Shown here one piece after another: positions 10,991 to 58,355 of a stretch of 64,000 bases of DNA. Source of the DNA: Candidatus Iainarchaeum sp. (GTDB lineage Archaea; B1Sed10-29; WALL01); NCBI GenBank assembly GCA_023129115.1, contig JAGMCR010000003.1, positions 64,001-128,000 of the forward strand, in the 5' to 3' direction. The notes below the pieces were generated by a model that worked only from the letters and a program-made list of their open reading frames with translations, did not search any database and was not told the origin of the DNA. Within the stretch, counting starts at the first letter, position 1, and every line of letters begins with the position of its first letter. Position numbers and translations under genes: made by a program.

Positions 10991-12316
10991 TCACATCCCC
11001 ATACCAAGCTTTCCCATCATCTTGGAAAGGCCCTTGGGGAGGCGCTTTCCCTTCTTGAACTTCTTGAATATCTTTTTGGTGGCATTGAACTGCTTCAGGA
11101 GCTCACGGACTGCGGACTCCGGCTTGCCCGAGCCCTTCGCGATGCGGCGGATGCGCGAGGAGTTGATTACATCAGGGTCCTCGAGCTCTTTCTCGGTCAT
11201 GGAGTCCATGATGTGCTTGTACGACTTCATCTTTTCCTCGCTCTGCTCGAGGACGTCGTCCGGGAGCTGGGCGCTCATGCCAAGCTGCTCAAAGACTTTT
11301 GAGAGCGAGCCCATTTTCTTGGTCGCCTCGAGCTGCTTGTAGAACTTCTTGAGCGTGAACTCGCCCTTCATCAGGTCTTCCGGCGAAAGGTCCTCTTCCT
11401 CGACCACTTCCTTGATGCGCTCCATCAGCGAGCCGAGGTCCGGGTAGCCCAGCAGCCGCGAGATGTACTTCTGCGGGTCGTAGGCTTCTAGGTCCTCCGG
11501 CTTCTCGCCCGTGCCAATGAAAGTGATTGGGATGCCCGCCTCGGCGCACGCCGAGAGAGCGCCGCCGCCCTTCGCGGACGAGTCCATCCTCGTCACGATG
11601 ACGCCCGTTAGCCCAATCGCGTCGTTGAACTCCTTTGCCTGCTTGCCCGCGGTCTGGCCCATGTCCGCGCCGAGAACTAAGATTTTTTGGTCGGGCTTGA
11701 GGATTGCGGACAAGTCCTTGACCTCGTCGATTAATTCCTTGTTCAGCGAGTCCCTGCCAGCGGAGTCCACGATAAGGAGGTCATGGCCCTTGACGGCCGC
11801 GATGCCCTGCTTGAGTATCTTGGCCGCGTCCTTCTCGCCCTTGATGCCAAACATTGGGACCTTTACTCTTTCGGCCAGCTGCTCGACCTGCTCGTAGGCG
11901 GCGGGCCTCCAGGTGTCAGTAGTGATTATCGCTGGCTTAAGGCCTCGCTTCGCGAAGTATTTTGCCAGCTTGGCCGTGGTGGTGGTCTTGCCGTGGCCAT
12001 ACGTGCCTACCAAAAGGATTTTCTGTGGCTTGACCTCTGGCTGGAACTCTTCGCCCACGAGGGAAATGAGCTCGTCGTAGACCAGCTTTATGAAGTGCTC
12101 CTTTTGTGAGATGCCTGCCGGCACTGTGGCGTCCTTCACGCGCGACTCTATCCGCTTCGAGAGCTCGAACACCAGCTTGATGTTGACGTCCGCGGAAATC
12201 AGCGTGCGCTGCAGCTCCTTAATGCTTGACTTGAGCAGCGCCTCGTCAACGACTGCGGCGCCGGATATCTTGCTGATGACCCCCCTTAGCCCGGAAGCCA
12301 ACTTGGATACTACCAT
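10991..12316 (-). CDS. srp54: Signal recognition particle protein Srp54
   Basis: GKTTT, DSAGR, TRMDSSAKGGG and M domain IMDSMT...SRIRRIAKGSG. Confidence 0.98.
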   Translation of the reverse strand: MVVSKLASGLRGVISKISGAAVVDEALLKSSIKELQRTLISADVNIKLVFELSKRIESRVKDATVPAGISQKEHFIKLVYDELISLVGEEFQPEVKPQKILLVGTYGHGKTTTTAKLAKYFAKRGLKPAIITTDTWRPAAYEQVEQLAERVKVPMFGIKGEKDAAKILKQGIAAVKGHDLLIVDSAGRDSLNKELIDEVKDLSAILKPDQKILVLGADMGQTAGKQAKEFNDAIGLTGVIVTRMDSSAKGGGALSACAEAGIPITFIGTGEKPEDLEAYDPQKYISRLLGYPDLGSLMERIKEVVEEEDLSPEDLMKGEFTLKKFYKQLEATKKMGSLSKVFEQLGMSAQLPDDVLEQSEEKMKSYKHIMDSMTEKELEDPDVINSSRIRRIAKGSGKPESAVRELLKQFNATKKIFKKFKKGKRLPKGLSKMMGKLGMGM

Positions 12317-32309: not shown

Positions 32310-32384
32310 AGCGGGGTGGAGTAGTTAGGAGTGCTCGTCGGGCTCATAACCCGAAGGTCATCAGTTCAAATCTGGTCCCCGCTA
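32310..32384 (+). tRNA. Initiator tRNA-Met (CAT)
   Basis: AGCGGGG...TCGGG CTCATAA CCCGA...TTCAAAT...CCCCGCTA; A1:U72 and three G-C pairs in the anticodon stem. Confidence 0.96.
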
Positions 32385-33114
32385 CTTTCTTTTTATTTCT
32401 CTCAAAAGCCAGCTTGGCTTTTGCCAAGTGTTTCTGGTTTCTAAAACCAATCTTCTCTAACCAGAGGCCGAGGTTTCTTAAGCCATAAACGCAGAGGTGA
32501 TGGGATATTACTTCTTTTTCTATTCTTTTATCATAAAACGATAAATCTAAACACAAGGAATAAGTGAAACCCTCTTCATGCAGTGCCTCTGCCACTTCTT
32601 GTATTATGTGTTTAGATGCTGTGTTTAGTTCAATTACTGGGTAATACTGAATATTCTTTCCTCTCCTTTTCAGTGCAACACAAAAGTCTGTGTCGGCGAG
32701 CCCCGCTATGAAGGCAGGTAGGAGGGGCCGTTCTTCCTTGATTGCTTGGGGGATTCGTAGTTTCTCGTATTTCCTACCACATGGCAGCCCAACCCCAACC
32801 AAAAATTGGACTAAGGACTTGGACCAAATTCGGAACCCGTACGTTGTGCCCCCATCAACAAGGTGGGGGAGGATATCCAAATTAAAGAGTTTTTTTATGA
32901 GAGGTATAAGCACTTCGTTGTAAAATGGCTTTTCGTCTTTTGGGTTGCCAACACACTTTACTTCGTAATCGGTCCCGTTTTTCTTCCTCCTTGAGACGAG
33001 AGCCCCGTCCCCTGCAAGAACACCAATAAAATAAGCGAGGTCCCTGTCGAGGGTTGTTGGGAATCTAAGCCCGCGCTTTTCATCGAATTTGCTTAATGTG
33101 GGGGAGGGCAACAT
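32344..33114 (-). mobile_element. Free-standing LAGLIDADG homing-endonuclease-like gene
   Basis: Two motifs FIGVLAGDG and FIAGLADTD; AT-richer than flanks; no intein splice motifs. Confidence 0.88.
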
Positions 33115-33211
33115 CAAACAAAAGACCGATTTTCTAAATAAATGGCTTGTGGTTAGGGGTTGCCGAGAACCTCTACTAACTTTTTATGCCCAAAAGTCCA
33201 ATAACTATGTG

Positions 33212-33442: not shown

Positions 33443-33552
33443 AAGCGAACCGCGTGGTTTTTGCTGTTGGGACTGCGGTTCCCTTTTACCGGCACCCCCC
33501 ATTCTTCCAGTAATGTGGGTGTCGGGGCCCATCACGCGCGAAAAAACGTCAA

Positions 33553-33577
33553 ATTTACGTAAATATTACGTAATATT
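33553..33577. promoter_or_regulatory. TTACGTAA palindrome pair
   Basis: ATTTACGTAAAT overlapping the 16-bp palindrome AATATTACGTAATATT (33562-33577). Confidence 0.75.
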
Positions 33578-33794
33578 ACTTGGGAAACACCAGTGTGAGC
33601 GAGGAATTGCCAAGTTTCTTTAGCTTTACGTACTTTTTCAGCACGGGCTTCACAAAGTTGCCTGCGCGGTCGTGGTAGCCATAAAGGTAGTTGCAGACAG
33701 TTGCCGGGCTGACTTTTGACTTTCGGGCTAACTCGCGGATCCAGATGCCTCTGGGGTGTCTGCGGATTTCTGTGAGGACTGTCTCGGAATGCAT
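33576..33794 (-). CDS. Small HTH DNA-binding protein
   Basis: HPRGIWIRELARKSKVSPATVCNYL. Confidence 0.85.
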   Translation of the reverse strand: MHSETVLTEIRRHPRGIWIRELARKSKVSPATVCNYLYGYHDRAGNFVKPVLKKYVKLKKLGNSSLTLVFPK

Positions 33795-33843
33795 GGAATC
33801 ACTGTTGGGGAATCAAAAATTAATTGTTAATTATTAATTAATT

Positions 33844-33860
33844 ATTGAACACTGTTCAAT
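33844..33860. promoter_or_regulatory. Operator-like inverted repeat in a very AT-rich spacer
   Basis: ATTGAACA-C-TGTTCAAT upstream of the small HTH gene. Confidence 0.55.
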
Positions 33861-33907
33861 TATTACTTATTACTTACTTAATCACTTATTAAACTTTTGG
33901 TTTTGCT

Positions 33908-34555
33908 TCACTCACTACCTTTCCCAACAGCTAATTCGCTGAGGAATCCCTTTGCCTCGTCAACGCTTGGCCGGAAGGGGAACTTAATTTCCCTAAACTC
34001 ATAGCCGAAGTCAAGCACGTGCTCCAAAAACTCAATTTCCCTGTAGTCAAAGGGGAGTACGTACAGGTGGAGGCGGAGGTCATCCTTTTGCTTGGCGTCT
34101 GAGGCAGCCATCAGCAGGTTCAGCATTTCCCAAGTATAATTCGCGGGCTTTGGGAAATGGTATAAGAGCGCATTCGCCTCAAAGTTCATTTCGCCGCCAG
34201 GAACCGGCAAGCTAATGATTGGGGGGTGGGAGTCGTACGAATAGAGGAAGTTTGTCTGGTAGAGCTCGCCCACCTTGCGGGGCACCGGATTTCCTGCGGC
34301 GCGGTTGCCCTTTGTAGTCATCTCCCTAGCGCGTTCCCAACAGCTGTTTTGCGGCGTATACTTAATTAAAAGCCCTGCAGACAGCAGTGGCGCCACGAGT
34401 GAGCGCACCGGCTTCCCTAGCTTTTCGCCGGGGGTCTTTGGGTAGAAGCCCGGGAGGGTCTTCAGGTGCCTCGCAATGCCTGCCACGGTCCTTGGGACTT
34501 GCCCGGAGCAATACACCAGCACTTCCCTCCGGGCTATCCCCCCATCAAAGCCCAC
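33908..34555 (-). CDS. Hypothetical protein, possible N-terminal wHTH
   Basis: PRTVAGIARHL...LLSAGLL; 215 aa. Confidence 0.65.
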   Translation of the reverse strand: MGFDGGIARREVLVYCSGQVPRTVAGIARHLKTLPGFYPKTPGEKLGKPVRSLVAPLLSAGLLIKYTPQNSCWERAREMTTKGNRAAGNPVPRKVGELYQTNFLYSYDSHPPIISLPVPGGEMNFEANALLYHFPKPANYTWEMLNLLMAASDAKQKDDLRLHLYVLPFDYREIEFLEHVLDFGYEFREIKFPFRPSVDEAKGFLSELAVGKGSE

Positions 34556-34652
34556 GCACAGCCCCCATCAAAACCATTGGACTATTGTAGTTTAAGCACT
34601 AATATAAACTTTTATGTAAACAGAACGGTGACTTAAAACCATTTTTTTTGGT

Positions 34653-35825
34653 TTAGAGTTTTTGGGCGGATTCCTCAATTCTGTCAAAGGCTTGCTTGAT
34701 TAGTGAGTATTCTGTGGCATAGCTCAGGCGTATGAATCCTTCACCGTAGCGGCCGAATTCTGTGCCTGGGACAGCCAGGACCTTAGCGTCTTTGAGCAGG
34801 AACTCGCAGAATTGGCCGGAAGTAAGCTTTTTGCCACGTTTCTTGAAGTGTATGCTTGGGAAGGCATAAAACGCGCCGTCTGGCTCGACTAGCTCAAACC
34901 CCGGGATAGCGCCTAGGCGCTTCACCACGAGCTTTCTGCGGCGGTCGTACTCCCTCCGCATGCGCTCTACGCAGCCCTGCGAGCCCGTGAGCGCGTGGTA
35001 GCCTGCGATTTGGCTCATTGTGGGGGCAGTAAGCGTGGTGTAAGTGTGCAGCCGTGTCATTGCCTTGATGAGCTCCTCTGGCCCAACTGCGTAGCCGAGG
35101 CGGTAGCCAGGCATGGCATAGCTCTTGGAAAAGGTCTGGAAGGTGACGCAGTGGTTTTCCATGCCGTTCAGTGAAGCCATTGAGTGGTATTTGCCCTCGT
35201 AGACCAGCTTTTCGTACGCCTCGTCCATGAAAACAAGGAAGTCGTGCTCGATTGCGATGTCGGCAAGCTCCTCAAGGCGTTTTTTCTTGAGCACTGTGCC
35301 GGTGGGGTTACTCGGCGACGACAGCACTATTGCCCGGACGCGCTTCGGGTCCTTGATGGCGGCTTCAATCGCGTCTGTGTAGAGCTGGAACCCGTCCTCT
35401 TCCTTCAGCGGGATAGAGATAGGGTATGCGTTGAACGCCTCAACCGTCGGGATGTAGCTCAGGAAGCAGGGGTCCGGGACAAGCACTTCTTCGCCGGGGT
35501 CGAGAATGCTCATGAGCCCGAGGAAGATGGCCTCGTTCGAGCCGCACGTGACAATGATGTTTTTGTCGGGGTCGATGCCCACGCGGCGGTCTTTCCTAAA
35601 CTTTTTGGCTATTGCCTCACGCAGCTCGGGCCTGCCGGCCATTGAGGAGTAATGGGTTTTTCCCGCGTCAAGCGCGTTTTTCGTGGCCTGGCGGATGAAC
35701 TTGGGCGTGTCGAAGTCTGGCTCCCCCGGCCCGAGGGAAATCAGGCCCTTGGCTTCGGCGGCCAGCCGCAGGATTCGCACGAAGTTGCTGTCCCGCAGCA
35801 GCAGTTGCCTTTCAGCGATTTGCAC
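34653..35825 (-). CDS. PLP-dependent aminotransferase class I/II
   Basis: GEPDF, PSNPTG, DEAY, TFSKSYAMPGYRLG; probable GTG start at 35825. Confidence 0.96.
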   Translation of the reverse strand: MQIAERQLLLRDSNFVRILRLAAEAKGLISLGPGEPDFDTPKFIRQATKNALDAGKTHYSSMAGRPELREAIAKKFRKDRRVGIDPDKNIIVTCGSNEAIFLGLMSILDPGEEVLVPDPCFLSYIPTVEAFNAYPISIPLKEEDGFQLYTDAIEAAIKDPKRVRAIVLSSPSNPTGTVLKKKRLEELADIAIEHDFLVFMDEAYEKLVYEGKYHSMASLNGMENHCVTFQTFSKSYAMPGYRLGYAVGPEELIKAMTRLHTYTTLTAPTMSQIAGYHALTGSQGCVERMRREYDRRRKLVVKRLGAIPGFELVEPDGAFYAFPSIHFKKRGKKLTSGQFCEFLLKDAKVLAVPGTEFGRYGEGFIRLSYATEYSLIKQAFDRIEESAQKL

Positions 35826-35862
35826 GCACAAATAAATACATGGGGTGTTAATAAAGGTTATT

Positions 35863-36606
35863 ATGAGGGCTGCACTGCTTTCGACCCCAAAGTTCAAGAA
35901 CCTCGCCGAGGTAAAGCGAATACTGGAACTAAGGGGGTGGTCCCTTGTCAAAGCCAACCCCGATTACGTAATCACAGTCGGCGGGGATGGCTCCATCCTA
36001 TACGCAGAGTCAAAATACCCCGGCGTCCCCATAATCTCACTGAATGCGGGCGAGCTCGGTTTCCTGGCCTGCAACGAGATAGATATGCTTGAAGAAGTAC
36101 TCAGCGCCGTGGAGAAGGGCAAAATGCTTGTGGATAAGCGGGAGAAGCTAGAATTCACAGTAAAAGGCAAAAAGCGGCGCGCTTTGAACGAGGTTCTTGT
36201 GACGAGCTCCACCGCGGGCAAGGCCCTCAGGCTGAACATTGAGATAGACGGCGAGCCCCTGGGCTTCTTTGTGTGCGACGGCGTGCTTGTATCGACGCCA
36301 ACTGGCTCCACAGGCTATAACCTGAGCTGCGGTGGGCCAGTGCTCGAGCCAGGGAGCGGGGCAGTGGCGATTACGCTCATCAGCCCCCACCTGTCAAGGG
36401 TGAACAGCGTTGTGGTGTCAAGCAGCAGGAAAATCACTGTCTCGTTCGCCAGGGAAAACCCGGGCATAACCGTGGTTGCTGATGGCCTGGAGTCAGTCAA
36501 AATAAGCCACAGCGAAAAAGTGCTGATTACACGGGCTAAAGGCAAGGCTAAGCTGGTAAAGCTTTCCCGCAACTACTTCTCTCGCCTCGAAAAGCTGTTC
36601 ACTTAG
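35863..36606 (+). CDS. nadK: NAD+ kinase
   Basis: GGDGS, GELGFL, ALNE, DGVLVSTPTGSTGYNLSCGGP. Confidence 0.96.
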   Translation: MRAALLSTPKFKNLAEVKRILELRGWSLVKANPDYVITVGGDGSILYAESKYPGVPIISLNAGELGFLACNEIDMLEEVLSAVEKGKMLVDKREKLEFTVKGKKRRALNEVLVTSSTAGKALRLNIEIDGEPLGFFVCDGVLVSTPTGSTGYNLSCGGPVLEPGSGAVAITLISPHLSRVNSVVVSSSRKITVSFARENPGITVVADGLESVKISHSEKVLITRAKGKAKLVKLSRNYFSRLEKLFT

Positions 36607-36910
36607 TCCTTCCGAGAAGGCTCCTTCGTGGGGTGTAGCTGGGCTTGGCCTCAGCCCCTCCTTCTTCAACGACCCCACTGCTCGCGCCGAGTATTACGAT
36701 GTCCCCGACCGCAGAAACGTTCTTGTAAAGGACGCTCTTTTCCTTGAGCACTTCCTTTGCCTTTTCCTTCGAGACAGAACGGAGTGGCTCAGTGGTGAGC
36801 CGGACAATCTTCCCGGTCTCGAGGTTAAGTATGATGTCGTTTACCTTGCCCACGTACTTCGCGCCCTCGGAGTAAATGTCAATGCCGTATAGCTCTGAAA
36901 TGTGCATCAT
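36599..36910 (-). CDS. PRC-barrel domain protein (CdpB-like)
   Basis: ISELYGIDIYSEGAKYVGKVNDIILN...YKNVSAVGDIVI. Confidence 0.9.
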   Translation of the reverse strand: MMHISELYGIDIYSEGAKYVGKVNDIILNLETGKIVRLTTEPLRSVSKEKAKEVLKEKSVLYKNVSAVGDIVILGASSGVVEEGGAEAKPSYTPRRSLLGRTK

Positions 36911-36985
36911 TCCCATGCGCCTCCAATGCAAAACAATATAATGCCTGCCCCATTAAATAAGCGAAGGGGGTTTATAAAGGTTATC

Positions 36986-37621
36986 ATGGCGAAAATCGAG
37001 CGCTTCAAGACAAAAGACAAGGCAATTTCAATAGTGGGCACGGGCCATGTCCTCCGAAAGTCGCTCCAGGCGGTCAAATCCGAGATACAGGACTTCGCGC
37101 CGGACGCGGTCGCCCTCGAGCTGGACCTGGGGCGCTTCCTCGCCCTGACCCAGCGCACGAGGCCGCGGCCCAAGGGCTTTGTAGAGGTGCTGCTGTTCGA
37201 GCTGCAGAAGCAGGCGGGCAAGACCACCGGCGTTAAGCCGGGGGCAGAGATGGTCGCGGCTGCGCGCGAGGCCAGAAAACATGGCATCCCAGTCGTCCTC
37301 GTGGACCGCGACATCCGCGTCACGCTCAAGCGCGCTTTACGTAATATGACGCTTTCAGAAAAGGTGAAGCTCTTGACCGGAATCATCGGCGGCTTCTTTG
37401 AGGTGAGGGACAAGGCCAGGCTCAACACCCTGATTGACCAAAAGGACGAGCTCATGGTCGAGTTCAAGCGCGAGCTCCCGTCTGTCTACAAGGCGTTGGT
37501 CACCGAGCGCGACGCCTATATGGCAAAAGCAATTTCTTCGCTTCCCTACAGCAAAGTCTTGGCAGTTGTCGGCGCCGGGCACATCGCAGGAATAAGGAAG
37601 CGGCTCGAATACCGGAAGTAA
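36986..37621 (+). CDS. TraB/GumN family protein
   Basis: IVGTGHV, VALELD, PGAEM, DRDI, ERDAYMA, VVGAGH. Confidence 0.93.
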   Translation: MAKIERFKTKDKAISIVGTGHVLRKSLQAVKSEIQDFAPDAVALELDLGRFLALTQRTRPRPKGFVEVLLFELQKQAGKTTGVKPGAEMVAAAREARKHGIPVVLVDRDIRVTLKRALRNMTLSEKVKLLTGIIGGFFEVRDKARLNTLIDQKDELMVEFKRELPSVYKALVTERDAYMAKAISSLPYSKVLAVVGAGHIAGIRKRLEYRK

Positions 37622-37633
37622 GGGGGTAAGGGT

Positions 37634-37720
37634 TTATGTAATATTACGTAATATTGCGCAACTTTACGTAATATTACGTAATGTGGCTTAGTTGACGCGT
37701 AAAGTTTACGTAAACTTTAC
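37634..37720. repeat. 10-bp-phased TTACGTAA array plus 22-bp palindrome
   Basis: TTATGTAATA TTACGTAATA TTGCGCAACT TTACGTAATA TTACGTAATG (37634-37683) and GTAAAGTTTACGTAAACTTTAC (37699-37720). Confidence 0.9.
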
Positions 37721-37728
37721 CAATGCCA

Positions 37729-38412
37729 TCACAGCTCTTTCAGGAGCCGGTATTTGGTTTTTCTCCCGCTTTTCACGGATTCCACGTAACCCGCCGCCTG
37801 GAGTGCCTTTAGGCGGCCCCAGATGTACTGCCGCGTCAGCCCTATCTCCTCTGCGAGGCCGATGGTGCTCAGCTCACTCTCCCCCAGCGCGTTAATTATC
37901 TTCTCGTCGCACTCCAGGAGATCGATTTTTTCATCTATCTCGTCAAGTGCTTTCACCTGACGCGTCAACTCATGCCTTGACGTGTCAACTTGACGCGTCA
38001 ACTCACCCCTCGTTGCCCGTAAATCTTCGAGTTTGTCGCCCAGGCCGTCAATCCCTACCAAAACGCGGTCTCCCTTGGAAATGTCTTCGTGGACCATGGC
38101 CTTCAGGTCGTCTATATCCTGTTTCGTGGCTACTTTGCCGTCTATCACTATAACGCGGTCGTTCATGGACTTATAAATCTCTTCGAGCTTGGATATCCGG
38201 TCCTGAATCGTCAAAAGGGGGTGCTCGACAGCCGGGCTGTATACCCTGGGGGCCTGCACCTCCATACTCTCCATTAGCATAGTGGCTTCTGGCGTGTTTT
38301 TTTGCTCGTGCCTCTTGGAAAGCGTCTTCTTCAGCTCAGACTCTTCCAGCGTTGGCTTTGCCTTTGTCTTTTTGCTCTTCTTGCGTAAGAAGTCGAACAT
38401 GCCCATGCCCAC
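37729..38412 (-). CDS. Amphipathic-helix / coiled-coil / C-terminal wHTH protein
   Basis: N-terminal MFDFLRKK, central heptads, C-terminal LSTIGLAEEIGLTRQYIWGRLKALQAAGYVESVKSGRKTKY; start may be ATG 38400 or 38406. Confidence 0.85.
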   Translation of the reverse strand: MGMGMFDFLRKKSKKTKAKPTLEESELKKTLSKRHEQKNTPEATMLMESMEVQAPRVYSPAVEHPLLTIQDRISKLEEIYKSMNDRVIVIDGKVATKQDIDDLKAMVHEDISKGDRVLVGIDGLGDKLEDLRATRGELTRQVDTSRHELTRQVKALDEIDEKIDLLECDEKIINALGESELSTIGLAEEIGLTRQYIWGRLKALQAAGYVESVKSGRKTKYRLLKEL

Positions 38413-38435
38413 TTCTTATAAATGTTCTCAAATAA

Positions 38436-38465
38436 ATACGTTATGTTACGTAATGTGACGCGTTG
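38436..38465. promoter_or_regulatory. Three 10-bp-phased ACGT/ACGCG sites just upstream of the wHTH gene TATA box
   Basis: ATACGTTATG TTACGTAATG TGACGCGTTG; minus-strand TTTATAA at about 38416-38422. Confidence 0.7.
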
Positions 38466-38539
38466 TTTACCAGCCACTTGACGCAAATCAGCCCCTTTTT
38501 TGGTGAGAGCGGGAAAACCCTACAGGATTTCCCAGCACC

Positions 38540-39240
38540 GGCTCTCACAACACAAACCCTCACTTTTTCACTATTTTGATTAAAACTATAACACCCACTC
38601 ACTTTTTGTTTTTCAGCTTATGGGGGGCCGCCAATTGGCGGCCCCCCGTTGGCGGCCTCTCACGTTTGCCCTTCCGCCAGTAACCACTCCCTTTTTTGGT
38701 TTTCTCAAGTCACCAGCCGGCCCAAATCCGCTGCCTCTCACTTTTCAGCTGTTGGGAGTTGCATTGGGTACAGCCCCCACAACTGCCTGGCCCGCCAATG
38801 GTCCAACCCTCACTTTTGCTTTTTTGGCCTTTGTGGAAGCCAGCCCCCCGTGCGGCCAGGCGCAGGCCCACTCCCAACACGCACTTTCGTGTTTTCAGCA
38901 CTAAGGGGGGTCGCCAATCGGCGGCCCCCCAAGTTTCTTTTGCTGGCCCCGCCTGGGACCCACTTTTTGGCCTTATTTACCCACTCTAACTCACTCCCAA
39001 CACCCATTTTGCCCCCAACCCCCTTATTCTCACTTTCTGGCTTCAAAACCCTTTTTTGATGTTTGGTTTCCCGGTTTTTTGCCTGGGGAGGGGGGTTTTT
39101 TCGCTGGCCCACACTTTTCCCGGTTTTTTGATTCCACGAGCCCGAACTCTCACTTTTCCTTAATCCTCAATTCAACTCCAAAATATATTTTATAAAATAT
39201 AAAATACGTAATATGTTACTCCAATATTATTGCACATCTT
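38540..39240. repeat. Non-coding block with about 12 same-strand CTCACTTTT-like repeats, GC palindromes and an AT-rich end; candidate origin-like region
   Basis: Copies near 38557, 38596, 38657, 38735, 38807, 38960, 39028, 39110, 39147; CACTCCCAACAC at 38869 and 38992; AT tract at 39181-39230. Confidence 0.6.
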
Positions 39241-39300
39241 CGAAACACCGAAATAGAAAAGGTTAAATAGCTGTTCCAACACATATTTTCCAGTGAAGTG

Positions 39301-39570
39301 ATGCACATGGAGCCGAGTTTGTTCTTGCACGAAAAGCCCGTCAGGGCCATTGTAGCGCTGTCTGACACGAAGAGGACGTGGTACGCCCATTTGCTTTCCA
39401 AGGAGATTGACTGCAGCTATGCCCATCTGGCGAAGGTGCTGGACCAGTTCGAGGAGAATGGGCTGGTCGAGTTCCACAAGGAGGGGCGCGTGAAGCTCTT
39501 GAGCATGACCAAAAAGGGCGAGGAGCTGGCGCACGACCTCGAGACCGTGCTGATGCGGCTGTCAAAGTGA
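39301..39570 (+). CDS. Small wHTH (MarR-like) DNA-binding protein
   Basis: LSKEIDCSYAHLAKVLDQFEENGLVEFHKEGRVKLLSMTKKG. Confidence 0.9.
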   Translation: MHMEPSLFLHEKPVRAIVALSDTKRTWYAHLLSKEIDCSYAHLAKVLDQFEENGLVEFHKEGRVKLLSMTKKGEELAHDLETVLMRLSK

Positions 39571-49192: not shown

Positions 49193-52100
49193 GTGCTCAA
49201 GCAGTTGGGAATCGACAAGCTCAACCCCGTGCAGGAAGAGGCGCTAGCCACGCGGTTCATCGAGAACCGCACCAACCTCGTCGTTTCCTCACCAACCGGC
49301 TCGGGCAAAACCCTAATTTCTTTGCTTGCGGCTTTGGAAGTAATCAAACAAGGCAAGAAAGTATTGTACCTATGCCCCCTACGCGCGCTCGCCTCAGAGC
49401 ACTACGACACATTCAAAAAAGTTCCAGGCCTGAGGGTTGCCTTATCAACCGGCGATTTGGACTCTCGTGACCACCACTTACAAAACTATGACCTAATCAT
49501 CACTACAACAGAGAAAGCCGACTCCCTCATGCGCCACAAGTCCAAGTTCGTGCCAGGCGTCGGCCTCCTGGTCGCGGACGAAATACACCTGCTCGACACC
49601 AACCGCGGCGCTACGCTCGAGACCATCATCACGCGCTTCCGACAGCTCCTCCCCAAATGTCAAATCATCGCCCTCTCTGCCACGGTCCCGAACGCAAAAG
49701 AAATAGCGGACTGGCTCGGCGCAGAGCTCGTCGAGAGCGACTGGCGCCCCACCCGGCTTACCAAAGGGGTCTACTACGAAAACATTATCGAGACCGACGC
49801 CGGAACAATCGAGGTATCCTCGACAGCAAAAACGCCCGTCCTCCAATTGGTCGAGGACACCGTCGCCCGCGGCGGCCAATCGCTCGTGTTCGTGAACACG
49901 CGCCGCTCCGCAGTCGCCGAGGCCCGCCGCATCGCGTCAACACTCAACCTCAACAACGAAGACCTCGCCGACAAAATCCTTTCCGCGCTGGAGTCCCCCA
50001 CCCGCCAGTGCAAAGAACTGGCAGACATAGTCCGAAAGGGCGCCGCGTTCCACACCGCCGCCCTCGTCGCCGAACAAAGAAAGCTAATCGAGAGCGCCTT
50101 CCGCGAAGGAAAAATCAAGGCCATCGCCGCCACGCCCACTTTATGTTTACCTCCCGACACCAGAATTTTGCTGTCGGATGGTAGCTACACACCAATAAAA
50201 AAAGTTGGAGTTGGAATGTCAGTTAAATCCCTAGACCCCAAGACTCTTAAACTGGTTGACAATAAAGTTGTTTCAACAGGCAAACGAAAAACAAGTGGGT
50301 TGGTTAAACTAGTAACTCGAACAGGAAAAAAGATTGAGTTGACTAGTAATCACCCTATTTTGGTCAATGAGTTTGGAGAGCTCAAATGGATTCAAGCAGG
50401 TAAACTAACCAAAGACATGTGGGTGGCGACTCCTCGTCTAGTAGAAAAAGATCCTGTTGACGTGTTTACTTTGGATGTTCTTCCGCATGATAAATTAAAA
50501 GTAATTGGTTCTGAGAGAGTGTTTGGACGGGTGGTTGATTCTCTTTTACCTACATATAAAACAAAGAAAACGATGTATGAGCGTTACGGTATAAATGAGA
50601 ATAGTTTTTTCAATTACTTGCGGGGGAAGACATCCATTCCTTTAGATCTGTTATTGGGCATGGCTGAGGATGCGGGTCTTAAACAAGAGGGAGTGTACAA
50701 GGGAATAAAGAGGGTGCTTTATTCTAGGTCGCCACATCTGAAAGACGCTTTAAGGCTACCTCTCTATATCAATAAAGACTTGGTCAAATTCATAGCTTAT
50801 ATGCTTGCTGATGGTTCTGTTTCGAGAAAACTGTCGTGGTGGGTGGGTCATTCTTATGTTATTTCTTTTACTTCATCAGATAAAGCAAAAATAAAGGAAT
50901 TTCAAGCGGTTGTCCGCAGAGTGTTTGGCTTGAACAGTAAAGTGGTAGAAAGTTATTTTGATGATGGGGTCTCACACGTGAGGATTACATCAAAAACTCT
51001 TGGTTTGTTGCTTGAATGTTTTGGGGTCACCCCGGGAAGAAAAGCACACATCATAAGGATTTGCCCGTTTTTTTTCTCTTTGTCAAACGAGTTGATTTTA
51101 GAATTCATCTTTTCTTTGATTGAATGTGATGGTTGTTTCAGGGTTCAGGATAATGCCATAGAATATTATACCTCAAGCAAAGATTTTGCCACAGACCTAC
51201 AATCATTATTACTGAGCCAGGGGGTCATCTCTTCCATTTATCTGAAGAAAAATGATGGGGTCCGAGAGTTCCATAACCAGTTTATTGTTGCCAAGCACCC
51301 GCATTACCGTTTAGTGATAACTGGCAAGTCCGCAAAAAGATTGTTTAATCGTTTTGGAATTAAGACCAATCAAACAAAGACAACTTATGAAAAAGACCAG
51401 ATTCCCCTGTCCATGAAGCTGCTTGAATTAAGAAAGAAACTTGGTATCTCAACATATGAAGCAAGGCAGTTGTCTGGTGTAGATTTTTGGGTTGCTGAGA
51501 ACACACATAGAGTACTGACAAGAAAGACGGTGAAGAAAATTTGTTCAGTTCCCGCGTTAAGTTCGCCACCATTAGACGACATAAAAAGATTGGCGTTCTC
51601 CGATATTTACTGGGAAGAAATAAAAGATATCACTAAACAAAAAAAGAAAACAGATGTTTTTGATTTAAGTGTTGAATCAACCCATAGTTTCGTAGCTAAT
51701 AACATTATTGTTCATAACTCAATGGGCGTTAATTTACCAGCGGACACTGTAATCGTCCGCGACCTCTCCCGCTACACCGAGAACGGCCTCTCCCCAATCA
51801 GCGTGCGCGAGTACCTCCAGATGTGCGGCCGCGCGGGCCGCCCCAACTACAGCAAGGACGGACTCTCGGTCTGCGTCGCCAAGGACCTCGCCGACAAGGA
51901 CACATTCTTTTCCGACTATGTCATGGGCAAGCCCGAAAAAGTGTATTCCCAATTGGGGTTCGAGCCCGTGCTCCGCACCCAGCTCCTCGCGAGCATCGCG
52001 GTCGGCTTCACGCCGACGCGCAAGAAGCTCGACGAATTCCTCCTCAATTCCTTTTACGCCTTCCAGTACGGCGAAATCGACTCCATCCGCCGCAAGGCAG

Positions 52101-52849
52101 ACGGCATCCTCCGCGAGCTCGAGGACTGGGGCTTCGTCACAACTGGCAACCACCTCCTGCCAACCCCGCTCGGCCGCCGCGTCTCCGAGCTCTACCTAGA
52201 CCCCTTCTCTGCCTACACAATCCTGAAGGCGCTCCGCGAGCGCTCGATGGGCGAGCTCGGGCTCTTGTACATGCTCACGGCGACGGACGAGCTCCGCCCC
52301 TACCTGCGCGCCCGGTCTGGCGAGGAGTCCACCCTGTGGGCCAATGCCTATTCCCACGAAAAGGAACTGGGGATTGACTGTGTGAACGTGGGGTTCGAGG
52401 ACTACAACTTCCTTGACAAGTACAAGACCACCTTACTCCTCCGCGACTGGCTCGAGGAATTGCACGAGGACTCCTTGCTGGAAAAGTACGGCGTGGCGCC
52501 GGGCATCCTCCGCGCCAAATTGTCGAACTGGAACTGGGTTTCCTATGCAGCCATCGAGCTGGCCAAGCTCGAGCACCTCCCACTAAAGGAGCTCCGGCGC
52601 GTGGAGCGCCGCATCAAGTACGGCGTGCGCGGCGAATTACTCCCGCTGGTAGAGCTAAAGAACATCGGTCGCGTGCGCGCACGCAAATTGTTCAGTGCTT
52701 CCATAAAGTCTATCCCGGACCTGGAAAAGATGCCTGCGCAGGACTTGGCGCGCGTCCTTGGCCCGCGCGTCGCCGTGTCAGTAAAGAAGCAGCTGGGCGA
52801 GGAGGTCTCGCTGTCCACGCCCAGGTCCGCCCAGTCAAAACTGGAATAA
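49193..52849 (+). CDS. hel308: Hel308/Ski2-like SF2 helicase, intein-containing
   Basis: SPTGSGKT, DEIH, LSAT, ATPTL|SMGVNLP, QMCGRAGRP, C-terminal IGRVRARKLF. Confidence 0.95.
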   Translation: MLKQLGIDKLNPVQEEALATRFIENRTNLVVSSPTGSGKTLISLLAALEVIKQGKKVLYLCPLRALASEHYDTFKKVPGLRVALSTGDLDSRDHHLQNYDLIITTTEKADSLMRHKSKFVPGVGLLVADEIHLLDTNRGATLETIITRFRQLLPKCQIIALSATVPNAKEIADWLGAELVESDWRPTRLTKGVYYENIIETDAGTIEVSSTAKTPVLQLVEDTVARGGQSLVFVNTRRSAVAEARRIASTLNLNNEDLADKILSALESPTRQCKELADIVRKGAAFHTAALVAEQRKLIESAFREGKIKAIAATPTLCLPPDTRILLSDGSYTPIKKVGVGMSVKSLDPKTLKLVDNKVVSTGKRKTSGLVKLVTRTGKKIELTSNHPILVNEFGELKWIQAGKLTKDMWVATPRLVEKDPVDVFTLDVLPHDKLKVIGSERVFGRVVDSLLPTYKTKKTMYERYGINENSFFNYLRGKTSIPLDLLLGMAEDAGLKQEGVYKGIKRVLYSRSPHLKDALRLPLYINKDLVKFIAYMLADGSVSRKLSWWVGHSYVISFTSSDKAKIKEFQAVVRRVFGLNSKVVESYFDDGVSHVRITSKTLGLLLECFGVTPGRKAHIIRICPFFFSLSNELILEFIFSLIECDGCFRVQDNAIEYYTSSKDFATDLQSLLLSQGVISSIYLKKNDGVREFHNQFIVAKHPHYRLVITGKSAKRLFNRFGIKTNQTKTTYEKDQIPLSMKLLELRKKLGISTYEARQLSGVDFWVAENTHRVLTRKTVKKICSVPALSSPPLDDIKRLAFSDIYWEEIKDITKQKKKTDVFDLSVESTHSFVANNIIVHNSMGVNLPADTVIVRDLSRYTENGLSPISVREYLQMCGRAGRPNYSKDGLSVCVAKDLADKDTFFSDYVMGKPEKVYSQLGFEPVLRTQLLASIAVGFTPTRKKLDEFLLNSFYAFQYGEIDSIRRKADGILRELEDWGFVTTGNHLLPTPLGRRVSELYLDPFSAYTILKALRERSMGELGLLYMLTATDELRPYLRARSGEESTLWANAYSHEKELGIDCVNVGFEDYNFLDKYKTTLLLRDWLEELHEDSLLEKYGVAPGILRAKLSNWNWVSYAAIELAKLEHLPLKELRRVERRIKYGVRGELLPLVELKNIGRVRARKLFSASIKSIPDLEKMPAQDLARVLGPRVAVSVKKQLGEEVSLSTPRSAQSKLE
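50144..51718 (+). mobile_element. Intein (525 aa) with LAGLIDADG endonuclease in hel308
   Basis: Starts CLPPDT; block B LTSNHP; YMLADG and LIECDG; ends IVHN before Ser; sharply AT-rich. Confidence 0.95.
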
Positions 52850-53603: not shown

Positions 53604-55385
53604 CTATTCTTCAGGGGAAGGACGCTGTTCCAGAAATTCCTTGAATGGCCCCTTCTTTTTTGAGAGCTCGTTGAATTTGCCTTCTTGGACAATCCTGCCT
53701 TTGTCAAAAACAACGACCCTGTCGCAGTTCTTTAGGGTTGTCAAGCGGTGGGCAATGGTTATCATAGTCTTGTCTGAAAATATTTTTTCGAGGTTTCTTT
53801 GGATTATCACTTCGTTTGTATTGTCCAATGCAGAAGTCGCCTCGTCAAAGATTAGGACATCAGGTGACTGAAGAATAAGCCGTGCCAATGCAAGCCGTTG
53901 TTTTTGGCCGCCACTTAGGTTGTTTCCGTTTTCTGCGACTCTTCCACCAAACCCGCCAAGTTTGTTTTTAATTTCATTATAAATATTGGCTTTTTTAGCA
54001 GCGTTAACCAAGTCTTCCTGATTTACTCTTCTTGAGCATCCGTACGTAATATTTTCTTTTATTGTTCCAGAAAATACGTAAGTCTTTTGTGGGATGTAGG
54101 CAATCCGCTCCGCGATTTCTTTCCTGGTCAATGACTTCAGGTCTTTCCCAAGGAGGGATATCCACCCACTATAACTATGAATTAACCTAAGCAGAATCTT
54201 GACAAACGTTGTCTTGCCACAGCCGGATGCACCCACGACCCCAATTTTTTCCCCCCGCTTTATCTTGATGTTCACGTTGTTTAAGACATTATCAGACTTG
54301 TTGGAATAAGCAAATGAAACGTTTTTCAGCTCCAGAACATCAGCGGATTCTTTTGATTGCTGGGGGATTGCCTTGAACGATTCGTCCAGTGGCTGTGTTA
54401 TTAAGCCGTGCAAGTCCATTACTTTGATGGAGCTTTCGTGGGCCTCATCCAGTATCCTATGAACCTCCCTCAGCGGCCGGATAACACTTACAAACAGGAT
54501 GGAGTAAGTGAGTATGTCACCCTTTGTGATGATTCCGTTCACAGCAAAATAAATTGAAATGCTGACAACCAGCACGTAGAAAAAGGCTTCATTCAAATAT
54601 TTGGCGGCGTCGTACAGCGCCATCCAGATGTGGTGCCCTATCTCTATTTTTCTTAGTTTTTCGGCGATGTTTTCCACTTTTTTGACTTCTAACTCACCAG
54701 TGTTCGCTACCCGGATTGTTTCCAATCCCCCCATCATTTCGACGACTTTCCCATCAATCTGTTCTTTGCCCCGCAATAAAGCCACTCTAATGCCTTTTTG
54801 GGAAGAGATTTGCTTGATTACGATGAATAAACCCATGGGCACCACTAGAATCATGAAAGAGGCAAGCAACGGTTTTTGGTAGAAAGCTATTCCAAGAGCC
54901 GCCAGGGCAGAAAAAAAGACGGGGAAAAAGTCCAGAAACCCGAGCTTAAGCAGTTTGATGAGGCCTTGTATTGAACGGAATATCTTGCCGTGCAATGCCC
55001 CAATTTGATATTTGTTGATGAATTCGTTAATGTCTGTTTTTAGCAGCCGGCTAATCACCCTCACAGTCAGTTTCTTTTCAGTTTGTGTTGCTACGTTCTC
55101 CACCAAATATTTTCGGATGACCGTTAAAACTGCGTGGAAAAATATTATCGCAATAACCATCACTAAGAATGGAACCGCCATTTCAAAAGATGGGGCTTCC
55201 AACACAATCATCTCGTCAACAAATTTGCCGAGGATTACAGCCGGGAGGTTTGTCAAGAAACCAGTGACGAGCATTATTGCTGTGGCAAGAAACAAGGACC
55301 GTTTTTCTTTTTTGTCCATCAATTGAGATACTGTGCTAAAGCCCCGCCGTATCTCCCGGAATTCTTTGAACAATCCCGCCATCAC
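53604..55385 (-). CDS. ABC exporter, fused permease-ATPase
   Basis: TM domain plus GASGCGKT, LSGGQKQR, DEATSALD, IAHRL; AT-richer than host genes. Confidence 0.95.
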   Translation of the reverse strand: MMAGLFKEFREIRRGFSTVSQLMDKKEKRSLFLATAIMLVTGFLTNLPAVILGKFVDEMIVLEAPSFEMAVPFLVMVIAIIFFHAVLTVIRKYLVENVATQTEKKLTVRVISRLLKTDINEFINKYQIGALHGKIFRSIQGLIKLLKLGFLDFFPVFFSALAALGIAFYQKPLLASFMILVVPMGLFIVIKQISSQKGIRVALLRGKEQIDGKVVEMMGGLETIRVANTGELEVKKVENIAEKLRKIEIGHHIWMALYDAAKYLNEAFFYVLVVSISIYFAVNGIITKGDILTYSILFVSVIRPLREVHRILDEAHESSIKVMDLHGLITQPLDESFKAIPQQSKESADVLELKNVSFAYSNKSDNVLNNVNIKIKRGEKIGVVGASGCGKTTFVKILLRLIHSYSGWISLLGKDLKSLTRKEIAERIAYIPQKTYVFSGTIKENITYGCSRRVNQEDLVNAAKKANIYNEIKNKLGGFGGRVAENGNNLSGGQKQRLALARLILQSPDVLIFDEATSALDNTNEVIIQRNLEKIFSDKTMITIAHRLTTLKNCDRVVVFDKGRIVQEGKFNELSKKKGPFKEFLEQRPSPEE

Positions 55386-56572
55386 GCAAACCTCTTCTCG
55401 ACCGCTGCCTTGACTTTTCCGGGCGGGAAGGACAATTTAATCAGCCTCGTGTTCCCCCGTATCCCTGGCCCGCTCATGGTCATCGTAATCAATCCCATCA
55501 TGTCGAGCTCGTTGAGGTATTCCCTGAACCACCTCGCGCTCCTCGCCATGGTCTTCCACTTCTTGCACAGGCTTTCGTAGCCCTCATACGCTTCTCCGGA
55601 AAACAGCAGCCGCTCCCCGTTGTCGGTCAGCCTCCGGTACTTGCTCCCCTCCGCAGTAAGGTTGGCAATCGCGTAGAGCACGATGCTCTGGTGCTCGGGC
55701 AGCGTGTTAATCAGCTCAATGACAATGTCTTCCTCGACCGCGCTCCTCGCCTTCTTCACGTACTCTTCAGTCGCTTTCGTGTCCTGTGCGTCAGCGAACT
55801 CGCCCGCCTTCAGCAGGAGCCGCAGCGCGTACCTCGCGTCGCCGCTTTCCTGCGCGGCGAACGCGGCGGCCAAGCCAATCGCGCCGTCTGTGATGTAGCC
55901 TTTCCTGAACCCTTCTTTCGCGCGGTCGGCGAGTATGGCGCTCAATTGCTCCGCGTTGTACGGCGCGAAGACCATTTCGTCCTGGCACAGCGTCGACTTG
56001 CTCCTCGGGTCAAGCTTTTCCTTGAAGTTAATCTTGTTGCTTATCCCGACCAGCGCGATGTGCCCCTTCTTCAAATCATCATTCGCACGCGTCAGCGCGT
56101 ACACCAGGTCGTCCAGATCTTTTACCTTGTCGATTTCGTCCAGCACCACGATGAAGACAAGCCCCTTGTCGACGTATTCCACGAACTTTTCGTAGAGGTG
56201 CGTGGACGACAGCCCGAGGAAGCTCTCGTTCGGCTCGGCGCGCTGCGCGAGCTTCAGCAGGACCTGGTACTTCGTGTTGTGCGTCCTGCAGTTCAGGTAA
56301 ATCGAGTCGACCTGTGCCTCGTACTTTTTCTTGGTCTCGTCGAGCTTTTCCATAACGTGCTTCACGACCGCCGTTTTTCCAACCCCGGTCTTCCCGTACA
56401 GGAAAAGGTTCGACGGCCTCTTCTGCGAGAGCGCTGGGGCGATGACCTTCATCACCTTGGTTATCTCTTCCTCCCGGTACGGCAGCTGGTCCGGCAGGTA
56501 GTGCGGGCTGAGAACGTTCCTGTCCTCAAAAATAGTTGAGCGGTTGATCTCTTTCTCGAACAGGTTTTCCAT
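55382..56572 (-). CDS. cdc6: Orc1/Cdc6 replication initiator
   Basis: LSPHYLPDQLPYRE, GKTGVGKT, VLDEID, PYNAEQL, GDAR, C-terminal wHTH. Confidence 0.97.
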   Translation of the reverse strand: MENLFEKEINRSTIFEDRNVLSPHYLPDQLPYREEEITKVMKVIAPALSQKRPSNLFLYGKTGVGKTAVVKHVMEKLDETKKKYEAQVDSIYLNCRTHNTKYQVLLKLAQRAEPNESFLGLSSTHLYEKFVEYVDKGLVFIVVLDEIDKVKDLDDLVYALTRANDDLKKGHIALVGISNKINFKEKLDPRSKSTLCQDEMVFAPYNAEQLSAILADRAKEGFRKGYITDGAIGLAAAFAAQESGDARYALRLLLKAGEFADAQDTKATEEYVKKARSAVEEDIVIELINTLPEHQSIVLYAIANLTAEGSKYRRLTDNGERLLFSGEAYEGYESLCKKWKTMARSARWFREYLNELDMMGLITMTMSGPGIRGNTRLIKLSFPPGKVKAAVEKRFA

Positions 56573-56714
56573 CCCGGCACCTCGCGGCTGACGATTATGG
56601 GAAGTGCCCTTTATAATGTTTTCTTCCGGTATTTTTTTGCATTAAACAGAGGCTTTTTATTACCCAAAAATTATAATCGGTCTTGCTTTTCAAGCTGTTA
56701 ATGGAGGCTTACGA

Positions 56715-57074
56715 ATGGTGGGATTTCTTAAAAAACTAACTGGCACGCCTGGTGCCGAGGAAACGGAAGTCGAGGAGTATTTGGACACACTCGGCCTAGA
56801 GAACGAGGACTTCATGGAAGAAGAGGCGGACGTGTGGATCAAGCCATTCATCCTTGAGGACGTTGGCGATGCCACTGTTGTTCAGGACGAGCTGAGCAAC
56901 GGGAACATTGTGCTGCTTAACATCGAGCCCCTCATGAAGAGGAATGCCATCAAGCTGAAGCAGACAGTCAACAAAATAAAGAACGCGGCTAAGTCGCTTG
57001 ATGGGGACATCGCGAGGCTCAGCGAGTACAAGCTCCTCGTGACGCCCAAGGGCATCAAGGTTTCGCGGAAGTAG
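56715..57074 (+). CDS. sepF: Cell division protein SepF
   Basis: N-terminal amphipathic GFLKKL, GNIVLLNI, GDIARL...LVTP. Confidence 0.9.
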   Translation: MVGFLKKLTGTPGAEETEVEEYLDTLGLENEDFMEEEADVWIKPFILEDVGDATVVQDELSNGNIVLLNIEPLMKRNAIKLKQTVNKIKNAAKSLDGDIARLSEYKLLVTPKGIKVSRK

Positions 57075-57881: not shown

Positions 57882-58355
57882 ATGGGCAAATGTGTGTTCT
57901 GTGACCTCAAGAAGGACGACGTAATCTACGCAAATGATGCCTTCCGCTCAACGTTCGACGCATTCCCGGTCTCCCCGGGCCACTCCCTCGTCATTCCGAA
58001 CCGGCACGTCACAACCATCGCCGAGCTGAAGGACGGCGAGTGGGCGCTGCTGAAGCCCGCAATCCTGAAGACCATCATGGTAATCGAGTCAACGGACTTC
58101 AGCGAGTTCTACAGCGGGTTCATCCACACGCCCGACGAGAAGACAGCTGTCTTTTCCGGCAAGATGCTTGAGCACACCGGCATAAGCAAGAAGCCGGACG
58201 GCTACAACATTGGCGTGAACCTTGGGCCTGCCGCGGGCCAGACAATCGAGCACCTGCATCTGCACATAATCCCGCGCTACCTCGGCGACACCGAGGCGCC
58301 AGCCGGGGGCATCCGGCAGATAGTGCCCGAGCTTGGGGACTACACAAAGCTCTAG
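57882..58355 (+). CDS. HIT family hydrolase
   Basis: CVFC, PVSPGHSLVIP, AGQTIEHLHLHIIPR. Confidence 0.95.
   Translation: MGKCVFCDLKKDDVIYANDAFRSTFDAFPVSPGHSLVIPNRHVTTIAELKDGEWALLKPAILKTIMVIESTDFSEFYSGFIHTPDEKTAVFSGKMLEHTGISKKPDGYNIGVNLGPAAGQTIEHLHLHIIPRYLGDTEAPAGGIRQIVPELGDYTKL

Follow-up and report, generated by a model that had tools for sequence, protein, structure and literature searches.

Does a field of short palindromes in and around a single winged-helix gene mark a place at which an archaeal chromosome is pinned to the membrane? The locus that raises this question lies in a 64,000-bp stretch (the window; C13:64001-128000, contig C13) of the genome of Candidatus Iainarchaeum sp. (G000 below; 1,247,405 bp in 19 contigs, about 56% GC), where the palindrome TTACGTAA clusters around a gene for a protein of 225 amino acids (aa), hereafter the target gene. 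An initial annotation of the window had proposed that a protein of this kind binds the palindromes and tethers the locus to the membrane, an interpretation that our analysis partly supports. The combination of a palindrome cluster, a gene whose product bears a hydrophobic and basic N-terminal tip, and origin-like signals is suggestive of a device for pinning one site of the chromosome to the membrane. The best explanation, to which we give a probability of roughly 45%, is a protein tethered to the membrane and coating a single chromosomal landmark, akin to RicO, RacA or Noc. The gene and its sites are laid out as follows (window coordinates unless a contig is named):

37729-38406, minus strand, target gene: 225 aa, assigned from Pfam HTH_24, an alignment of 19 homologues, an AlphaFold2 (AF2) model and Foldseek
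38433-38464, minus strand, target promoter block: one TTACGTAA (38446-38453), a half TGACGCGT motif and a TATA-like run
37958-38000, no strand, three TGACRYGTCA palindromes (37958, 37978, 37991): inside the target coding sequence
37634-37713, no strand, 3' array: directly 3' of the target stop codon, in the gap between convergent genes
Array units: 37634 (TTATGTAA), 37644, 37654 (TTGCGCAA), 37664, 37674, 37693 (TGACGCGTAA) and 37706
37337-37352, no strand, composite site TTACGTAATATGACGC: within the TraB coding sequence; the exact 16-mer recurs at C13:164007 and has no third copy in G000

Exact copies of TTACGTAA number nine in the window (33555, 33566, 35964, 37337, 37644, 37664, 37674, 37706 and 38446), which is the count, position by position, that the initial annotation had given, and no copy lies outside 33555-38453, again as claimed. 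When the window was shuffled 100 times with its dinucleotides preserved, the word appeared 0.16 times on average and once at most, and none of the 100 shuffles reached nine. Genome-wide there are 13 copies, nine of them within these 4.9 kb (33555-38453; binomial P 1.6e-19), a distribution that forms one sharp cluster and not a dispersed regulon. Three of the four copies outside the cluster lie within coding frames and one is intergenic (C13:164007). This last copy sits beyond the window between convergent genes, a second PRC-barrel gene and a 312-aa open reading frame (ORF; region C13:163398-164966), and is embedded in a longer near-palindrome, CGTCAAATTTACGTAATATGACG. A second word singled out in the annotation, TGACGCGTCA, occurs twice in G000, both times inside the target ORF. 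Arrays phased at 10 bp had been described on both sides of the gene. Downstream, unit starts at 37634, 37644, 37654, 37664 and 37674 do follow in 10-bp steps, with two of the five units degenerate (37634 has one mismatch and 37654 reads TTGCGCAA), and beyond them come TGACGCGTAA at 37693 and an additional exact TTACGTAA at 37706; upstream, this description did not hold, and there is a single exact copy (38446) and no array. The 32-nt promoter block that contains this copy is identical between G000 and the same-genus genome G002, and its flanks diverge.

The target protein finds a match in 12 of 41 related genomes, and 11 of the 12, G000 among them, fall into four families of one order. Homologues that carry names come from Diapherotrites-type DPANN archaea, and the genomes of the order in which orthologues occur are small and probably DPANN. 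Homologous genes had been expected to be flanked by their own palindromes, and this is what we found: all ten complete orthologous loci, window included, have an exact TTACGTAA no more than about 200 bp 3' of the gene, and 5 of 11 loci have one within 100 bp upstream. TTACGTAA is also the most frequent palindromic 8-mer in 8 of the 11 relatives' loci fetched, as it is at the window locus. Tandem pairs of the form TTACGTAA-N2-3-TTACGTAA occur in 6/41 genomes, all of which carry the gene, with every match at the target locus, and in 0/29 genomes without it. The locus holds 6 of the 11 copies in G001, 3 of 8 in G004, 3 of 7 in G006, 6 of 15 in G007 and 5 of 10 in G010; the remaining copies in these five genomes are singletons, except for two that lie 1.7 kb apart in G006. 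A reversed control word is commoner than TTACGTAA (12-64 per genome), and each of six genomes checked has a single TTACGTAA cluster. By this comparison of genomes, the conclusion that palindrome and gene travel together is supported.

Same-class genomes that have the neighbouring genes wHTH90, PRC and orf215 together with a divergent analogue of the target carry 0 or 1 TTACGTAA in the stretches fetched and another repeat instead, and the recognition helix of the divergent analogue differs from that of the target. At a same-class locus that also bears element D (see below), a 194-aa analogue of the same architecture occupies the target's position beside a different repeat; hhalign aligns it with the target at a probability of 90% (E 1.8e-6) in the C-terminal 79 columns. 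In G021, from the family with the divergent analogue, the spacer and 3' region (L045:6640-8230) carry TTAGGCACTACAYGTGAG repeats, and the coding sequence of the analogue has GTCGCGAC-type repeats where the target has TGACRYGTCA.

What kind of protein does the gene encode? The ORF had been drawn at 37729-38412 with an N-terminal MFDFLRKK helix; because of the alignment of 19 homologues we set the start at ATG 38406 (MGMFDFL...). From there the protein consists of the N-terminal tip MGMFDFLRKKSKK, a disordered linker to about residue 60, the sequence HPLLTIQD, two helices (65-91 and 97-178) and, at about 165-223, a winged helix. Met-Gly opens every one of the 19 aligned homologues; 4-5 hydrophobic residues come next and then a run of Lys/Arg, and in 18 of the 19 the tip has a net charge of +2 to +7; a variable charged linker and then the invariant HPLLTIQD follow. 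Wherever the motif is TTACGTAA, the recognition helix reads TRQY.W.R and the wing GR.TKY without exception. The C-terminal winged helix-turn-helix (wHTH) of the initial annotation is borne out by Pfam HTH_24 (PF13412; E 4.6e-7, 29.8 bits vs a cut-off of 21.9, residues 169-211), and NCBIfam HTH_metalloreg scores 26.7 bits, under its cut-off of 55. In the AF2 model (mean predicted local distance difference test score, pLDDT, 75) residues 1-60 lie below 50 and residues 165-223 above 90, the latter forming three helices and a two-strand wing, and a long helix is predicted before them. Foldseek matches this model to SmtB/CzrA/ArsR proteins (E ~2e-4) and a PDB sequence search to 2oqg (E 6.7e-7); both sets of matches cover the winged helix alone and hold no structural relative of the N-terminal 160 residues. 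A profile search of 1.84 billion representatives returned 65 proteins at E <=1e-3, 17 of them at <1e-30, and the tip is retained in those distant homologues that were inspected.

The likeness of the tip to the N-termini of SepF and FtsY that had been pointed out is present in the window, in MVGFLKKL of SepF (56715, plus strand) and MFGFLKKK of a 440-aa ORF (13661, minus strand) that is putatively FtsY-like. The N-terminal helix of SepF is reported to be a membrane anchor (PMC8178401). Elsewhere in G000, a tip-like start, MGLLDLFRKKGK, is found on a 598-aa ORF that looks kinase-like by eye (C14:55320-57116, minus strand), and small ORFs start with MGLFDKL and MGLLDKV (C14:34021; C13:159155). 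One N-terminal targeting motif may be common to several proteins of the lineage.

A second type of palindrome, TGACRYGTCA, lies within the gene itself: three of the six copies in G000 are in the target coding sequence, and the position is conserved among orthologues, at least one copy remaining there in 7 of 10 coding sequences. Two frames are used to read it, giving LTRQ in one and IDAS/VDTS in the other, and AT-rich relatives spell it with otherwise rare CGT codons; the target gene of locus L014 has 17 Arg codons, two of which are CGT, and both of these fall within TGACRYGTCA. That two reading frames and rare codons are involved points to sites that are maintained by selection at the DNA level, beyond the peptide alone. 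In the arrays of relatives, TGACRYGTCA variants are interleaved with TTACGTAA. Upstream of the gene, a long purine-rich spacer separates it from wHTH90:

38465-39297, minus strand, spacer of ~830 bp: non-coding

The spacer holds at least five minus-strand copies of AAAAGTGAG(R)G (38559, 38598, 38737, 38809 and 39149), that is, 5 of the 24 in G000, and these islands are kept in same-genus G002, where the sequence between them diverges. In family f3 orthologues the AAAAGTGAG DNA motif appears in frame in the linker, as KSERS repeats. The spacer also contains two GC-rich 26-nt palindromes (38620-38645 and 38905-38930), of which GGGGGGCCGCCAATTGGCGGCCCCCC is perfect and the other a near-perfect close variant; both are absent from G002. 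A search of the spacer and arrays against Rfam gave no family, its RsaE match (23 bits vs a gathering score of 79, E 0.47) being due to chance.

Is the marked site of any significance to the chromosome? A 20-nt element, D, with the consensus (G/T)(A/T)A(T/C)(A/T)C(C/T)GGAA(C/G)(T/A)A(A/T)GGGGG, has four copies in G000, three of which lie at the locus, each with palindromes 8-44 bp away (P 1.5e-7):

33495-33514 (block to 33573), minus strand, D1: inverted relative to D2 and D3; followed by the TTACGTAA pair at 33555 and 33566, just 3' of HTH72
33800-33905, no strand, AT-rich stretch: the lowest-GC 100 bp of the 64 kb starts at 33811 (18% GC); TTGAACACTGTTCAA at 33845-33859
35918-35937, plus strand, D2: TTACGTAA 26 bp further on (35964-35971); both in the NAD-kinase coding sequence
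37607-37626, plus strand, D3 (GAATACCGGAAGTAAGGGGG): 8 bp from the array; overlaps the last TraB codons

A D2-like copy occupies the equivalent relative place in G001 (L013), a D3 element follows the array also in the TraB-less loci L016, L018, L019 and L021, and an inverted copy lies past HTH72/orf215 in L016, L018 and L019 and in G003. With its TTCC...GGAA core and terminal G-run, D has the form of the origin recognition box (ORB) sequences in PMC1904270 and PMC3528665: the Pyrococcus mini-ORB is TTCCAGTGGAACT (PMC1904270), which includes AGTGGAACT, to be compared with ACTGGAACT in D, and the haloarchaeal ORB-like element takes the form CGGAA-N-GGGG with a terminal G-run or G-string (PMC3528665, PMC4010727). 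The 17-nt core pattern of D is found in 15/41 genomes, its reversed control in 0/41. D1 and the inversely oriented D2 bracket the AT-rich 100 bp, and 33800-33905 is a candidate DNA unwinding element; TTGAACACTGTTCAA has one copy in G000. HTH72 and an AT-rich spacer bearing the TTGAACACTGTTCAA palindrome lie in G003 between two inverted D copies, which are 400 bp apart. D1 and D2 of the window are separated by 2.4 kb that contain genes, an unusual distance for origin recognition boxes. The fourth copy (C14:54693-54713) lies just upstream of the MCM gene, as do copies in G002 and G005 (L100:2316; L101:181), and may represent an Orc1-MCM regulatory link. In G000 this copy is followed by a TATA-like run, ATTTTAAATAT. 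Among seven D-bearing same-class stretches without a target match, four have D beside the PRC barrel and orf215; wHTH90 is present in three of these and the fourth stops at a contig end, and the TTACGTAA array is absent from all seven.

The same place stands out in strand asymmetry. Cumulative GC skew along the 168-kb contig C13 peaks at 96-100 kb, that is, at the locus. On the low side (98 kb, 92 ORFs) strand-independent skew is +0.089 (+0.123 at third positions) and genes on both strands are positive; on the high side (66 kb, 56 ORFs) it is -0.090 (-0.114 at third positions) and genes on both strands are negative. Since both gene strands share the sign of skew on each side, the switch is no effect of gene orientation. 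In bacteria, a maximum of cumulative GC skew marks the terminus. Strand-independent skew shows weak sign changes in the like direction at the G020 D locus and the G015 cluster, and is flat and near zero in G007. Plain GC skew in G005, G006, G007 and G009 is noisy and dominated by gene orientation, and in AT-rich relatives skew is almost wholly transcription-linked. Calibration of the sign on two complete archaeal genomes (G033, G036) found no replication-type skew beside orc1, and a repeat-density scan of G015 singled out no origin. Other skew minima in G000 lie on C14 at ~58 kb (near MCM and FEN1) and on C5 at ~51 kb (near a weak second Cdc6-like ORF). The contigs of G000 fall into three skew classes, at about +0.1 (C4, C19, left part of C13), about -0.1 (C9, C16, C18, left part of C14, right part of C13) and about 0 (C1, C3, C5, C15; ~326 kb).

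Replication genes lie in the wider surroundings:

55382-56572, minus strand, orc1/cdc6: 17-22 kb from the D copies, divergent from sepF
58352-63028, PolD large subunit DP2: within ~25 kb of the locus, with an intein bearing a LAGLIDADG domain

The 142-bp gap between orc1 and sepF (region 55382-57074) holds TTCCGGTATT, which is the D core minus its last base and minus the G-run. This divergent pairing recurs in G007, G015 and G020, and in six genomes (G000, G005, G007, G015, G019 and G020) 16-43 kb separate the pair from the cluster; in other relatives orc1 is on another contig. A Hel308-type helicase (49193-52849) likewise carries an intein with a LAGLIDADG domain. The ORB-like elements, intragenic sites, purine-rich repeat spacer and strand-asymmetry switch, all of which the initial annotation overlooked, lead us to regard the locus as a replication landmark and not a centromere alone, with origin and terminus about equally likely.

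How might the parts work together? According to the explanation that we favour, the 225-aa protein would be a sequence-specific winged-helix binder of palindromes with T(T/G)AC half-sites, both TTACGTAA and TGACRYGTCA, and would occupy its own promoter, its own coding sequence, the close-packed array after its stop codon and a position next to every one of the three D elements in these 5 kb. Joined via the long helix, many copies of the protein would coat a platform of about 1 kb together with the satellite sites, and the flexible 50-residue linker with its hydrophobic and polybasic tip would hold this complex on the cytoplasmic membrane. The cellular role that we infer follows from the place: the locus being a replication landmark, it is this landmark that the system would fix to the membrane. 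Several points weigh against this explanation. One exact TTACGTAA lies within the target's own promoter, and L016 and L018 have the array between the target gene and the co-directional PRC-barrel gene, upstream of the latter, an arrangement that fits an ordinary repressor or activator too. Four further winged-helix or HTH-like genes in the cluster could bind some of the motifs, and the two palindrome types, of 8 and 10 bp, space their half-sites differently, an arrangement that a single rigid dimer would not easily accommodate. For the tip, which the initial annotation took for an amphipathic helix, AF2 gives a helix of 5 residues at pLDDT <50, and its hydrophobic moment is moderate (0.22-0.61). 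The sign of the skew is that of a bacterial terminus, while an origin is indicated by the ORB-like elements and by orc1 and PolD nearby. Finally, the relatives are kin, and gene and site counts among them are not independent.

Several known systems resemble the proposed device in part. RacA of Bacillus subtilis, an HTH protein with a coiled coil, binds origin-proximal clusters of ram sites; it reaches the membrane via DivIVA and not by a helix of its own, unlike the target with its putative N-terminal membrane tip. The parS site inside the parB (spo0J) gene itself offers a parallel to the TGACRYGTCA sites in the target coding sequence. ParB, however, works with ParA, and the target has no adjacent ParA-type gene, nor does one appear in the conserved neighbourhood across the order. 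The earlier statement that the window holds no ParA/ParB or SegAB gene is right for the immediate surroundings and has to be amended for one weak CbiA-family match at 11564-11998, the other CbiA-family matches in G000 being on contig C12; the adjacent ParA-type ATPase of SegAB and ParABS systems is lacking at the locus. TubR-tubC of type III plasmid partition has, like the target, a winged-helix protein on close-packed repeats beside its own gene. TubR is not known to have a membrane tip, and its structure 3m8e ranks 47th among the Foldseek matches (E 4.7e-3), on the generic winged-helix fold alone. From ArsR/SmtB metalloregulators the target differs by its unrelated 160-residue N-terminal part. 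D shares with archaeal ORBs the TTCC/GGAA core, the terminal G-run, the low copy number and the inverted arrangement round an AT-rich stretch, and differs from them in that orc1 is ~17-22 kb off, copies lie 0.4-2.4 kb apart with genes between, and one copy is in the MCM promoter. RicO of Staphylococcus aureus joins a specific DNA-binding domain to a coiled coil and to an amphipathic helix that binds membrane; it has nine sites near oriC, bridges DNA to the membrane and anchors the origin (bioRxiv 10.64898/2026.03.06.710092). Compared by this description, the target has predicted counterparts of all three modules and, like RicO, a few sites near a replication landmark, 9/13 TTACGTAA being at the skew switch; they differ in that RicO is bacterial, its order is reversed (DNA-binding domain N-terminal, helix C-terminal) and its sites span ~700 kb, against ~5 kb for those of the target. 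Noc of B. subtilis combines an N-terminal membrane-targeting helix (putative in the target) with palindromic sites and forms large membrane-associated nucleoprotein complexes (PMC8429893). It is a ParB-family CTPase with sites spread round the chromosome, whereas the target sites form one cluster and its protein gave no ParB-family Pfam or NCBIfam match at E <=0.01. The target protein probably belongs to neither the RicO nor the Noc family, and the literature searched yielded no archaeal counterpart of Noc, RacA or RicO as DNA-membrane tethers.

The genes around the target form a conserved cluster, of which these members concern us here:

36599-36931, minus strand, PRC-barrel gene: conserved neighbour, Pfam PRC E 7.2e-9
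33576-34555, minus strand, HTH72 (33576-33794, a 72-aa HTH gene) and orf215 (33908-34555): syntenic in the order, orf215 class-wide
39298-39570, plus strand, wHTH90: 90-aa winged-helix gene, divergent, conserved class-wide

Order-wide, genes and sites follow one another as orf174, orf156, wHTH90 (divergent), long spacer, target, array, (TraB), PRC barrel, (NAD kinase), (aminotransferase), orf215, HTH72, palindromes and K+ antiporter. Neither HTH72 nor orf215 matched a Pfam or NCBIfam family. The PRC-barrel gene, correctly noted before, is part of a class-wide conserved gene cluster. PRC-barrel proteins CdpB1-3 act with SepF in haloarchaeal division (bioRxiv 10.1101/2023.03.28.534520), and a link of this neighbour to cell division would be by analogy with that haloarchaeal work only. 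We also considered 32.4-34.6 kb, with its tRNA-Met and LAGLIDADG-like ORF, as an integrated element and rejected this because HTH72 and orf215 are syntenic order-wide. A 257-aa ORF on the minus strand runs with its 3' end into the tRNA-Met gene (32310-32385, plus strand; region 32310-33117) and has, by eye, LAGLIDADG-like motifs.

Could the locus be explained without a membrane? The strongest competitor, though on balance an unlikely one, is a local autoregulating transcription factor that acts on its own gene, on the PRC-barrel-orf215-HTH72 unit and on the divergent wHTH90, with the arrays serving as high-occupancy operators or roadblocks and the tip used otherwise, in turnover or partner binding. 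A winged helix of ArsR/MarR type would suit such a factor, as would the exact site in the perfectly conserved promoter block just upstream of the TATA-like run, the array position in L016 and L018, and the protein atlas, which gives generic archaeal winged-helix regulator clusters alone, all with scores <0.9. It fits less well that the array lies between convergent gene ends in five loci (the window, L013, L014, L015 and L017), where it is therefore not a promoter, and that the outlying composite site (C13:164007) is likewise between convergent genes. Sites within three coding sequences and up to 12 sites per 1 kb go far beyond operator needs, and the conserved tip and 50-residue linker would be left without a role.

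Less probable still is an origin accessory factor, by which the locus would be oriC, D the Orc1/Cdc6 sites, and the protein a controller of initiation through sequestration, occlusion or stimulation, with membrane contact secondary or absent. The palindromes close to all three D elements at the locus, the resemblance of D to the Pyrococcus mini-ORB and the haloarchaeal G-string ORB, its inverted copies flanking the window's most AT-rich 100 bp or, in G003, the AT-rich spacer, its place before MCM in three genomes, and the surroundings with orc1, sepF and PolD DP2 are all as this reading would have it. D is, however, only a putative Orc1 site by its sequence and is not directly adjacent to orc1/cdc6, unlike in most studied archaeal origins as described (PMC4010727, PMC3528665), and the skew-predicted origin of one related Diapherotrite is reported to adjoin cdc6 (PMC5905446). 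Moreover, in same-class genomes D lies ~100 bp upstream of the PRC-barrel gene and could therefore be an ordinary promoter element, and cumulative skew is at a maximum at the switch, as it is at a bacterial terminus. That forks instead converge here, with the protein keeping the terminus region at the membrane or at the division site much as MatP-matS links Ter to the divisome, is the most doubtful of the three: it has in its favour the change of strand-independent skew from positive to negative, the weak like-direction changes in G020 and G015, the conserved PRC-barrel neighbour (CdpB1-3 acting with SepF in haloarchaea) and sepF 18 kb off, and has against it the nearby ORB-like elements, orc1 and PolD, a sign convention that is uncalibrated in the lineage, two complete archaeal genomes having no replication-type skew beside orc1, and the fact that we know of no archaeal terminus system for comparison.

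A membrane tether remains the reading that we prefer, and the locus has interest for several reasons. It presents an unusual case in which putative binding sites are kept inside the coding sequence of their own binder, in two reading frames, and as a compact pair of protein and sites it is amenable to in vitro work. For an uncultured lineage it provides a candidate replication landmark with ORB-like boxes. Chromosome positioning and segregation in FtsZ-dividing archaea are largely unknown, and the locus bears on this question. It is possible, and we put it forward tentatively, that this is the first archaeal chromosome-to-membrane anchor to be described, one that has its own site field in and around its gene, lies beside Orc1-type boxes and pins the origin (or terminus); if true, the oriC of these DPANN-like archaea would be placed away from orc1.

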